A stretch of DNA of 64,000 bases. It comes from Escherichia coli. GTDB taxonomy: Bacteria; Pseudomonadota; Gammaproteobacteria; Enterobacterales; Enterobacteriaceae. Below are positions 14,112 to 14,835 of this stretch, in pieces (position 1 is the stretch's first letter; each line of letters begins with the position of its first letter). The notes below the pieces were generated by a model. That model had not been told where the DNA came from, searched no databases, and saw only the letters and a list, made by a program, of their open reading frames with translations. Both the position numbers and the translations under genes were made by a program. Where the stretch lies: the NCBI RefSeq assembly GCF_003334815.1, contig NZ_QOWO01000019.1; one strand, written 5' to 3'.

Positions 14112-14153
14112 AGAAATCAGACCAGTGGCGAGAGTATAGGTCGGACCAGCTGG
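14112..14153 (-). promoter_or_regulatory. Two candidate FadR operator sites in fadL promoter region
   Basis: On the fadL strand: AGCTGGTCCGACCTATA and CCACTGGTCTGATTTCT, both matching the TGGTCNGACC core of the FadR consensus; located 90-130 bp upstream of fadL start. Confidence 0.5.
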
Positions 14154-14396
14154 AATGTTGCAAGTATGTTTCTATCTTTTTTCAAATATGATCTAAGAAA
14201 CGCGATCCAGCTGGCAAAATTTGGAGGTGGCGCACTCATGGATTCGGGTGAATTTTGTTTTAGATCATTTTTAAGTGTGATTTCGGTCACTTATCCGATT
14301 TTGCAGAATTAACAACTGGAGCAGCACTTTCCGGAAGCGTAAAATATCCACAACGTTTATCTGGCACCTTGGGTGCACATACAGAGGAAATCAACG

Positions 14397-14681
14397 ATGA
14401 GTAAATGTAGTGCTGATGAAACCCCGGTTTGCTGCTGTATGGATGTTGGCACCATTATGGACAACTCCGACTGCACCGCGTCTTACAGCCGCGTGTTTGC
14501 AAACCGCGCAGAAGCAGAGCAAACGCTGGCGGCGCTGACTGAAAAAGCCCGTAGCGTGGAATCTGAACCTTGCAAAATCACCCCGACTTTCACTGAAGAG
14601 TCTGACGGTGTGCGCCTGGATATCGATTTCACTTTTGCCTGCGAAGCTGAAATGCTGATTTTCCAGCTGGGTCTGCGTTAA
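14397..14681 (+). CDS. yfcZ: Small conserved protein YfcZ (UPF0381 family)
   Basis: 94-aa ORF MSKCSADETPVCCCMDVGTIMDNSDCTASYSRVFANRAEAEQ...; ORF track over-extends 8 codons upstream. Confidence 0.88.
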   Translation: MSKCSADETPVCCCMDVGTIMDNSDCTASYSRVFANRAEAEQTLAALTEKARSVESEPCKITPTFTEESDGVRLDIDFTFACEAEMLIFQLGLR

Positions 14682-14696
14682 TTCCTCTCGGGTACG

Positions 14697-14730
14697 TACG
14701 CCCCTGTCAGTTGCTGGCAGGGGCGTTTTC
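14697..14730 (+). terminator. Rho-independent terminator after yfcZ
   Basis: Stem CGCCCCTG/CAGGGGCG with 11-nt loop followed by TTTTCTTTTCT. Confidence 0.6.
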
Positions 14731-14818
14731 TTTTCTCTTCTTCTTTTCTCTCTGTGTCATAGCTCCCACTTTCCCTTTTCTCCACTTGGCTAAATGTAAA
14801 AAAATGGTTAAGACTATG

Positions 14819-14835
14819 ATCAGGTCAGACCACTT
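14819..14835 (+). promoter_or_regulatory. Candidate FadR operator upstream of fadIJ
   Basis: GATCAGGTCAGACCACT, palindromic around GGTCAGACC, matches FadR consensus; 27 bp upstream of fadI start. Confidence 0.55.

Follow-up and report, generated by a model that had tools for sequence, protein, structure and literature searches.

The Escherichia coli gene yfcZ is a separate transcription unit divergent from fadL and probably independent of the flanking FadR operators

The fadL-yfcZ-fadIJ locus and its FadR operators

The window is the whole stretch of E. coli DNA that was analysed, 64,000 nucleotides in length. Positions 13900-15000 match E. coli K-12 MG1655 with 100% identity, and this region was found in 5426/5426 complete E. 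coli genomes. The identical K-12 record carries, in its RefSeq annotation, the gene order fadL (minus strand), yfcZ, fadI and fadJ (all plus strand), so that yfcZ is divergent from fadL, as the preliminary description of this DNA had it. Transcription start sites (TSS) were taken from Kim 2012 (PMC3415461) and mapped by the relation genome position = 2473353 - window position. The elements of fadL and fadIJ are as follows.

12685-14025, minus strand: fadL (K-12 RefSeq annotation; ORF list)
14026-14126, minus strand: 5' leader of fadL, from the published TSS at 14126 (genome 2459227, 248 reads; PMC3415461)
14111-14127, minus strand: FadR operator 2 of fadL, CACTGGTCTGATTTCTA, 10/13 to the consensus
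14135-14151, minus strand: FadR operator 1 of fadL, AGCTGGTCCGACCTATA, 12/13 to the consensus
14753-14768, plus strand: CRP-like site TGTGTcatagcTCCCA 5' of fadI, 8/10, inside a conserved block
14786-14791, 14809-14814 and 14822, plus strand: putative -35 (TTGGCT), putative -10 (TAAGAC) and TSS of the fadIJ promoter (PMC3415461), the two hexamers being assigned from the sequence
14819-14835, plus strand: FadR operator of fadIJ, ATCAGGTCAGACCACTT, 11/13 on both strands
14862-18316, plus strand: fadI-fadJ operon (ORF list; RefSeq annotation)

The three FadR-like boxes of the preliminary description are genuine, with its coordinates right to within 1-2 bp at fadL and exact at fadI. Across the 64-kb window, 4 matches to the consensus ANCTGGTCNGACNTNTT with at most two mismatches occur, compared with 1.05 expected. 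They fall on 3 loci, and the one besides fadL and fadI is the fabB promoter, a known FadR site. At the 10/13 level of fadL operator 2 there are 26 matches against 13.6 expected, which is not above chance by itself; this operator is accepted as real because of a published EMSA (PMC3460868) and its conservation, not its motif score. In that EMSA both fadL sites were bound, and binding was released by oleoyl-CoA (PMC3460868); for fadIJ, FadR binding is cited in a review (PMC9329746).

With the published TSSs, each operator falls on the -10/+1 region of the gene that it represses. Operator 1 spans -9 to -25 of fadL and overlaps the -10 element TATACT (14133-14138), operator 2 spans about -1 to +16 of fadL, and the fadIJ operator spans -3 to +14 of fadI, where the TSS at 14822 corresponds to genome position 2458531 (PMC3415461); a review also places this operator over the TSS (PMC9329746). 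Both fadL operators are conserved across Enterobacteriaceae (81 unique spacers), and their mutual offset is fixed in 75/84 loci. Most positions of the fadL leader are 80-100% conserved in 81 Enterobacteriaceae sequences. The fadI promoter is likewise conserved, and 76/77 loci have a FadR core 40-47 bp (in one case 51 bp) 5' of the fadI ATG. The Morganellaceae fadL/yfcZ spacer keeps site 2 and is devoid of site 1, and the fadL/yfcZ spacer of H. influenzae yielded no FadR box.

The boxes are already published as the sites through which FadR represses fadL and fadIJ, and their detection is a rediscovery. The published operators have the same sequences, 17-bp imperfect palindromes matching aaCTGGTCnGACC(T/A)Gtt, with nothing different, and as textbook sites they add nothing new. 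It is established knowledge that FadR occludes both promoters and that acyl-CoA releases it; in the present geometry FadR covers -10 and +1 of fadL and +1 of fadIJ until released by long-chain acyl-CoA. The preliminary description also assigned fadIJ to anaerobic beta-oxidation, a label that is doubtful because fadIJ is aerobically expressed and ArcA-repressed (PMC9329746). The same review reports a CRP site at fadIJ (PMC9329746). The only Rfam match in the region is a chance one to Spot 42, at 20.8 bits with a threshold of 80 bits.

The yfcZ transcription unit and its upstream elements

The following elements belong to yfcZ or lie in the spacer that it shares with fadL.

14186, plus strand: minor distal yfcZ TSS (P2), 10 reads, 211-nt leader (PMC3415461)
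14255-14268, plus strand: FNR-like site TTGTTttagATCAT from the motif scan, 8/10, centred at -90.5 from yfcZ P1
14276-14291, plus strand: CRP site TGTGAtttcggTCACT, 9/10, centred at -68.5 from P1 and at about -157 from the fadL TSS
14340-14345 and 14352, plus strand: -10 (TAAAAT) and TSS of the main yfcZ promoter P1, 15 reads (PMC3415461)
14362-14377, plus strand: sigma54-like element TGGCACcttggGTGCA, 10/11, at +11 to +26 of the yfcZ leader
14397-14681, plus strand: yfcZ coding sequence, 94 aa, DUF406 (PF04175/TIGR00743), with the Shine-Dalgarno sequence GAGGAA at 14384-14389
14698-14726, plus strand: hairpin of the yfcZ intrinsic terminator, 13-bp GC-rich stem and 3-nt loop, followed by a T-run to 14736

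yfcZ is a separate single-gene unit with its own promoter and terminator. P1 yields a transcript with a 45-nt leader; its -10 is 100% conserved in the 81 unique Enterobacteriaceae spacers, and a sigma70 ChIP peak at genome position 2458992 maps to window position 14361 (PMC3688515). Studies of RppH treat the yfcZ mRNA as a single transcript from its native promoter. The -10-like hexamer of P2, TATCTT (14173-14178), is poorly conserved, its positions ranking with the most variable ones of the spacer. The terminator, already noticed in the preliminary description, folds with -25.8 kcal/mol (z = -5.3). A hairpin follows the yfcZ stop codon in 73/73 unique Enterobacteriaceae spacers, where the best folds of the first 67 nt have a mean of -21.4 and a range of -14.8 to -34.6 kcal/mol. 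In four other genera examined, the stem sequences differ and a U-tract follows in 3/4. An alternative GTG start at 14373, giving 102 aa, was rejected, as homologues align from MSK and GAGGAA lies 7 nt before the ATG at 14397.

Upstream of P1, the block 14253-14292 comprises the CRP and FNR-like sites, and nearly every one of its positions is 100% conserved in the 81 unique spacers. The CRP site lies 63 bp from the yfcZ -10 in 72/75 scorable loci, although this spacing cannot tell service to yfcZ from service to fadL, all distances in the spacer being invariant. Binding of CRP-cAMP has been shown by EMSA at a site "157 bp upstream" of the fadL TSS (PMC3460868), and an FNR ChIP peak lies in the spacer (genome 2459100/2459154; PMC3688515).

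The arrangement resembles that of class I CRP/FNR promoters, which, like P1, combine upstream sites (here 22 bp apart) with a good -10 and a poor -35. At such promoters the activator is centred near -61.5, -71.5 or -92.5, and the two centres at yfcZ are 1-3 bp off these positions. The likeness extends to published binding at this spacer, of CRP in vitro and of FNR by ChIP in vivo. The fully conserved block may serve P1 from class-I-like positions, and the CRP site validated as that of fadL would act at least equally on yfcZ. A site credited to fadL, from where its distance of -157 is unusual, is in an activator-like position for yfcZ, which could explain the modest effect of CRP on fadL.

A sigma54-binding element may lie in the yfcZ leader. 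The flanks of the sigma54-like sequence are at least 90% conserved, with the strict motif in 35/84 loci only, and the element could also fold as a 5-bp RNA hairpin. An RpoN/NtrC gSELEX peak at genome position 2458968, or window position 14385, is accompanied by a gel shift (PMC8743547).

On the change from aerobic to anaerobic growth, sigma70 occupancy at yfcZ P1 rises 5-fold, from 59.7 to 303.4, and falls from 149.6 to 5.3 at the fadL promoter and from 113.9 to 7.8 at the fadI promoter (PMC3688515, Table S2), a decrease of 15- to 28-fold at the two fad promoters. In strain O157, yfcZ was up 3-fold along with yfiD, ackA, nap and hyp genes (PMC2241611). Table S9 of Myers et al. gives the yfcZ/fadL FNR peak without an FNR-dependent expression change in glucose minimal medium, and yfcZ is absent from their aerobic/anaerobic expression list; the case for anaerobic induction of yfcZ therefore comes from sigma70 occupancy and a single O157 array. 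Given the conserved CRP/FNR-like block at P1, oxygen limitation would turn yfcZ on while ArcA turns fadL and fadIJ off.

FadR control of yfcZ and the pairing of yfcZ with fadL

The preliminary description suggested that yfcZ is co-regulated with fatty acid uptake and degradation, as it is bracketed by FadR operators. This is the only new suggestion about the operators, and their geometry does not support it. The fadL boxes lie at -201 to -241 relative to the main yfcZ TSS at 14352, the fadI box lies at +468 to +484, past the terminator and on +1 of fadI, and there is no FadR operator at or beside P1. Because of these distances, the bracketing describes position and not regulation: the boxes sit on -10/+1 of fadL and +1 of fadI, and FadR bound there would have no obvious route to act on P1. 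As judged from operator geometry alone, yfcZ would be independent of FadR, and it should not enter the FadR regulon on positional grounds. The fadD promoter offers a partial parallel, since it has dual FadR sites with modest repression (2-3 fold), like fadL, and one of its sites is far from the start (about -100) with an unclear role, as are the boxes distant from yfcZ. However, the distant fadD site belongs to the upstream region of fadD itself, whereas the boxes distant from yfcZ are the core operators of its divergent neighbour. Our literature search found no publication that followed yfcZ in fadR-deficient cells or on oleate, and there is no yfcZ entry in the accessible part of the iModulon supplement.

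The suggested co-regulation with fadL has partial support, in that the two mRNAs move together in two perturbations. On nitrogen depletion the fadL mRNA falls 3.5-fold and that of yfcZ 3.1-fold (PMC8743547). The two also move together on deletion of lldR, with yfcZ among the targets reported to fall, and LldR, a FadR-family protein, binds both fadL FadR boxes in gSELEX (PMC10272880). The FadR inference is not supported, and the oxygen response is not shared: sigma70 occupancy at yfcZ moves opposite to that at both fadL and fadI when oxygen changes.

The adjacency of yfcZ and fadL is kept far beyond E. coli, so that a lack of synteny outside this species, which the preliminary description would have counted against its idea, does not apply. 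The divergent pair is present in 80/80 Enterobacteriaceae species loci, collected by a genome scan with 533 genome hits (all Enterobacteriaceae, at least 82% identity), with YfcZ amino acid identities of 82-100% and a spacer of 376-378 bp in most loci. Single look-ups of more distant contexts also found the pair in Morganella, Proteus, Haemophilus influenzae and a second Pasteurellaceae-like contig; in H. influenzae the neighbour of the yfcZ homologue is ompP1. The Pasteurellaceae loci keep the pair without fadIJ, indicating that the conserved partner of yfcZ is fadL and not fadIJ. The adjacency is lost in Celerinatantimonas, Dichelobacter and one further contig, and in Agarivorans and Corallincola the two genes stand 1.7-3.7 kb apart. 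What evolution has kept is the divergent pair with its rigid spacer of about 377 bp, rather than the FadR bracket or fadIJ.

Taken together, yfcZ is probably independent of the flanking FadR operators, with P1 served by the conserved CRP/FNR block and fadL/yfcZ forming a conserved pair. That yfcZ is a true member of the FadR regulon, repressed from the fadL operators through P2 or through a blocked bidirectional promoter region, we consider unlikely. The distal P2 start does have 10 reads compared with 15 for P1 and places operator 1 at -35 to -51, the LldR data involve the same two boxes and an effect on yfcZ, the two mRNAs drop together on nitrogen depletion, and the pair is kept across families. 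On the other hand, the P2 -10 is poorly conserved where that of P1 is invariant, the gene pair persists with one FadR box in Morganellaceae or with none found in H. influenzae, sigma70 at yfcZ shifts opposite to fadL, and a review does not have yfcZ among the directly FadR-repressed degradation genes (PMC9329746). A yfcZ-fadIJ operon, in which the fadI box would be an internal operator or roadblock, could be suspected from the common orientation of yfcZ and fadI, 180 bp apart. It is highly improbable in view of the strong terminator, conserved in structure in all genera sampled, the TSS of fadI itself with its conserved -35 and -10, the opposite sigma70 occupancy at the two promoters, and the Pasteurellaceae that carry yfcZ without adjoining fadIJ.

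The position of yfcZ might also be a neutral relic of an ancestral gene order, with two back-to-back promoters and no link to fatty acid uptake. The lost or loosened adjacency in the five cases above would fit this, as would the opposite oxygen responses of the two genes, and the publications examined that mention yfcZ contain no lipid-related phenotype. Nevertheless, the pair survives in Pasteurellaceae, where one flank is unlike that in E. coli and the other differs between the two loci, and the spacer length is near-invariant despite a poorly conserved middle at 14222-14252, suggesting a constraint on the whole bidirectional region. Functional or regulatory links are, in general, overrepresented among conserved divergent gene pairs, which also counts against a relic, and we find this explanation quite unlikely.

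The YfcZ protein and its possible role

YfcZ matches PF04175 over residues 3-94 (E = 1.5e-36) and TIGR00743 with 157 bits (cut-off 71). DUF406 is the sole significant match in Pfam and NCBIfam, with no known metal-binding domain, and the Foldseek matches below E = 1e-3 are DUF406 structures only, with no known metal-binding fold. The AlphaFold2 model has a core with pLDDT >90, composed of beta 27-34, alpha 37-54, beta 60-68, beta 71-79 and alpha 83-93, which matches the structures 2K3I, 2JZ5 and 2KHD. The solved family members YiiS (PDB 2K3I; phmmer E = 1e-16 to YfcZ) and VPA0419 (2JZ5) share with YfcZ the beta-alpha-beta-beta-alpha core, the disordered N-terminus and the F-x-C-Q-A-E motif; YiiS has GC at the position of the YfcZ CCC. 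The YiiS gene is not known to be adjacent to fadL on the K-12 map. Inspection of the YfcZ N-terminus found no hydrophobic stretch, and a signal peptide or lipoprotein was therefore discarded.

The preliminary description of yfcZ as small and Cys-rich is borne out by 7 Cys in 94 residues (C4, C12-14, C26, C59 and C82), which are enriched and partly conserved. Among 31 DUF406 representatives, one per 50%-identity cluster, Cys is found at C12 in 87%, C82 in 87%, C59 in 74%, C13 in 68%, C14 in 68% and C26 in 58%; F80 is found in all of them and E85 in 30/31. C12, C14 and C82 reach at least 90% among YfcZ-type proteins, and no Cys is invariant family-wide. YfcZ would be cytoplasmic, with a conserved but presumably intrinsically disordered N-terminal tail, C-x7-CCC-x-D-x-G-x3-D-x3-C. 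C59, C82 and E85 would lie at one pole of the core, where they might be joined by the Cys tail. A metal or thiol site in YfcZ is plausible, and we only tentatively propose that the tail together with C59, C82 and E85 forms a metal or redox-thiol site. The NMR structures of DUF406 are silent on this site, because the samples contained 10 mM DTT and 5 mM CaCl2 with no transition metal, and the VPA0419 construct was without the N-terminal 16 residues. Papers on copper evolution, iron halide and AHL that mention yfcZ give no functional information.

The function of YfcZ may be tied in some way to FadL-type transport. A more far-reaching reading is that the spacer acts as a rigid bidirectional oxygen/carbon switch, with fadL closed by ArcA and FadR and yfcZ opened by FNR and CRP, and that YfcZ is a FadL-linked Cys-site protein used under oxygen limitation. 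We regard this switch as speculative and doubtful. In it, the cytoplasmic YfcZ would carry a metal, Fe-S or redox-thiol site and have a role in the uptake of hydrophobic substrates or in membrane-lipid handling. If true, it would explain the pairing of DUF406 with FadL even in Pasteurellaceae, where the pair is not accompanied by fadIJ. DUF406 lacks an assigned function despite three NMR structures and two decades, and its divergent pairing with a FadL-family gene in both orders covered, Enterobacterales and Pasteurellales, together with the opposite oxygen response, provides a testable lead.

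Gene order and FadR boxes

Across positions 13900-15000 the sequence matches E. coli K-12 MG1655 with 100% identity, and the segment is found in 5426/5426 complete E. coli genomes. Genes listed below follow the K-12 record annotation, and the transcription start sites are the published genome-wide ones (PMC3415461 supplement), mapped by genome = 2473353 - window, a relation anchored on the flanking sequences in that start-site table.

Features of the fadL-yfcZ-fadIJ locus (window positions)
12685-14025, minus strand, fadL
14397-14681, plus strand, yfcZ
14862-16172, fadI
16172-18316, fadJ, with sixA next
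14135-14151, minus strand, fadL FadR site 1, AGCTGGTCCGACCTATA
14111-14127, minus strand, fadL FadR site 2, CACTGGTCTGATTTCTA
14819-14835, fadI FadR box, ATCAGGTCAGACCACTT
14126, fadL start, 248 reads
14352, main yfcZ start (promoter P1), 15 reads
14186, minor distal yfcZ start, 10 reads
14822, fadI start, 3 reads
14255-14268, FNR-like site, TTGTTttagATCAT, centred at -90.5 from the main yfcZ start
14276-14291, CRP site, TGTGAtttcggTCACT, centred at -68.5 from the main yfcZ start

All three FadR boxes lie where the preliminary description placed them, and that observation is confirmed as a whole; the boxes are already known operators, and their novelty is low. With up to two mismatches to the 17-bp FadR consensus, the 64-kb window contains four matches at three loci, against 1.05 in shuffles. 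The third locus, GGCTGATCGGACTTGTT at 33643-33659, is the sole such match besides the fadL and fadI boxes. It falls in the mnmC-fabB spacer, ahead of the fabB ATG (33726) by 67-83 bp, and is a FadR activator site already known for fabB; all strong FadR matches in the window are therefore genuine sites. The fadL site 2 scores just 10/13 to the consensus, a level often reached by chance, and is taken as real because gel shifts with oleoyl-CoA release have been published (PMC3460868) and because it is conserved in our alignment of 81 distinct Enterobacteriaceae fadL-yfcZ spacer sequences. It is also the only FadR box retained in Morganellaceae spacers. The fadI FadR core is kept in 76/77 loci, and a search of the H. 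influenzae spacer found no FadR box. A published PdhR gSELEX site, cAgcGGTaaaACCtgac, maps to 14866-14882, in the first codons of fadI and downstream of the FadR box.

Between mlaA and fadL, the 352-aa ORF yfdF (11261-12319) is seen in the K-12 locus alone; it was not found within 6 kb of yfcZ in any other Enterobacteriaceae locus compared, other Escherichia included, and it probably represents an insertion specific to this lineage. A G-run of about nine residues (12442-12451) lies between yfdF and fadL, on the downstream side of fadL.

Conservation of the fadL-yfcZ pair and its spacer

The conserved partner of yfcZ is fadL. The divergent fadL(-)/yfcZ(+) arrangement is present in 80/80 Enterobacteriaceae species loci, with fadI-fadJ next in 78/80, wherever the locus extends that far, and Morganella and Proteus share this gene order. 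In Haemophilus influenzae and a second Pasteurellaceae-like contig, the DUF406 gene is divergent from and adjoins a FadL-family (Toluene_X) gene, with ogt beyond the latter and fadIJ absent at the locus. The synteny of yfcZ with fadL therefore extends beyond E. coli, contrary to the restriction that the preliminary description named as part of a refutation. In Agarivorans and Corallincola the FadL-family gene lies 1.7-3.7 kb from the DUF406 gene, with an ECF sigma/anti-sigma pair intervening, and in Celerinatantimonas, Dichelobacter and one further contig it is not near the DUF406 gene. Upstream of the Agarivorans DUF406 gene (locus L088, 4887-4900) is a near-perfect FNR/CRP-type palindrome, ATGATACGTATCAA, matching the FNR consensus at 9/10 positions, a hint that the family may have come under FNR-type control before it was paired with fadL.

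YfcZ is 82-100% identical among the loci compared, FadL 71-80% in most and >90% in the closest relatives only. YfcZ is better conserved than FadL in most loci and is thus under strong purifying selection. In three Escherichia loci (L003, L004 and L006), FadL is 76% identical to K-12 FadL (L001), with YfcZ at 98-100% and FadI at 97-98%, which points, in some Escherichia, to allelic dimorphism or recombination in fadL alone; FadL is a receptor for phages and colicins. In one H. influenzae assembly (L084, 4423-5857) the FadL homologue ompP1 beside the DUF406 gene is split into ORFs of 163 and 328 aa, owing either to a frameshift (a pseudogene) or to misassembly; in another strain (L085) the homologue is intact (456 aa).

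The spacer (14026-14396) hardly varies in length: in most of the 80 species loci it measures 376-378 bp, although the sequence of its central part (14222-14252) shows poor conservation. In 74/74 scorable loci FadR site 1 and the CRP site are 137 bp apart, and in 72/75 the CRP site and the yfcZ -10 are 63 bp apart, which suggests a spacing constraint on the entire bidirectional region. Conserved blocks include the fadL leader, both FadR boxes, a TTGCAA element upstream of the fadL -10 and part of the yfcZ leader. The yfcZ -10 (TAAAAT) is 100% conserved in the 81 sequences, as is nearly every position of a 40-bp block (14253-14292) holding the FNR-like and CRP sites. The fadL 5' leader (14026-14110) is 80-100% conserved at most positions across genera, more than expected from the FadL protein (about 75% identity in most loci); the sRNA RybB pairs with fadL mRNA (review PMC9329746).

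The CRP site is the gel-shift-validated site that Feng and Cronan assigned to fadL, '157 bp upstream' of that gene's start, and fadL-lacZ fell only modestly in their crp mutant (PMC3460868). To judge by its position, the site would suit activation of yfcZ better than that of fadL; conservation favours neither gene, since all spacer distances are invariant. Immediately upstream of it, TTTGTTTTAGATCATTTTTAAG (14253-14275) is also 100% conserved at nearly every position in the 81 sequences, which its 8/10 FNR-like match explains only in part, and a further factor may bind this region.

Transcription of yfcZ in relation to FadR

From the published start sites, the fadL boxes span -25 to -9 and -1 to +16 of fadL, and the fadI box spans -3 to +14 of fadI, conforming to the occlusion geometry described for all FadR-repressed genes (review PMC9329746). 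Measured from the main yfcZ start, the fadL boxes fall at -201 to -241; the fadI box is past the yfcZ terminator. The FadR 'bracket' therefore follows from the place of yfcZ between two fad transcription units. That yfcZ has its own terminator, as was noted from the sequence, is borne out by a 13-bp stem (14698-14726) followed by a T-run (-25.8 kcal/mol, z = -5.3 against shuffles), seen again in other genera with differing stem sequences. The -10 of the distal yfcZ start is among the least conserved spacer positions.

The spacer between yfcZ and fadL holds an FNR ChIP peak, one of those listed as showing no effect of FNR on expression in glucose minimal medium (PMC3688515 and supplement). From aerobic to anaerobic growth, sigma70 occupancy rises from 59.7 to 303.4 at a peak mapping to yfcZ P1 and drops at both fad promoters (fadL, 149.6 to 5.3; fadI, 113.9 to 7.8), with aerobic fadL, fadI and fadJ mRNAs 3-4 fold above anaerobic ones; yfcZ is absent from the aerobic/anaerobic expression list of that study (PMC3688515). 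In E. coli O157, yfcZ is up 3-fold alongside yfiD, ackA, nap and hyp genes (PMC2241611). The fadL and yfcZ mRNAs fall jointly on nitrogen depletion (PMC8743547), and an lldR mutation is reported to affect the two genes, LldR being a FadR-family regulator that binds both fadL FadR boxes (PMC10272880). RppH studies describe yfcZ mRNA as a single-gene substrate from its native promoter.

In the yfcZ leader, TGGCACcttggGTGCA (14362-14377, +11 to +26) matches the sigma54 -24/-12 consensus at 10/11 positions and coincides with a published RpoN/NtrC gSELEX peak that has an accompanying gel shift (PMC8743547). Were transcription to start from this sigma54 element, hardly any leader would precede the ATG, in keeping with the repressor/roadblock role proposed by those authors. 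The same bases can also form a 5-bp RNA hairpin, and the strict motif occurs in 35/84 loci.

The preliminary description took the position of yfcZ to suggest co-regulation with fatty-acid uptake and anaerobic beta-oxidation, a reading that finds partial support. The link to fadL stands, through conserved gene order and a common spacer; FadR co-regulation gains no support from geometry, and yfcZ responds to oxygen in the opposite sense to the promoters on either side. A literature search on fadR mutants and oleate found no yfcZ measurement. In sum, yfcZ has a regulatory spacer in common with fadL, some co-variation and an opposite oxygen response, and nothing links it to FadR.

The YfcZ protein

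YfcZ belongs over its full length to DUF406 (PF04175), a small family of 108 clusters at 50% identity among 1.84 billion representative proteins. NMR structures of its paralogue YiiS and two Vibrio members are monomers with a beta-alpha-beta-beta-alpha fold, determined in 10 mM DTT without transition metal on constructs with a disordered or truncated N-terminus. AlphaFold2 predicts the same core for YfcZ (pLDDT >90), with residues 1-22 below 50, and the only significant Foldseek matches are the three DUF406 structures.

Among 31 representatives, one per distinct 50%-identity cluster, no Cys is invariant.

Cys frequencies in the 31 representatives
C12, 87%
C82, 87%
C59, 74%
C13, 68%
C14, 68%
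C26, 58%

In YfcZ-type proteins, conservation is highest in the 'disordered' segment, CCCVDVGTIIDNxDC. C26, C59 and C82 lie one residue ahead of strand 1, strand 2 and helix 2, respectively, and, given these positions and the antiparallel A-C-B sheet order reported for YiiS, the topology would place them at one pole, beside the near-invariant E85. A search for a known metal-binding domain in YfcZ gave no match. The conserved Cys segment, together with the Cys residues and E85 predicted at one pole, makes it plausible that the tail is ordered by a metal, Fe-S or redox-thiol site, a prediction of low confidence. The remaining lead is the combination of a conserved divergent fadL/DUF406 pair, anaerobic promoter occupancy and a conserved Cys-rich tail.
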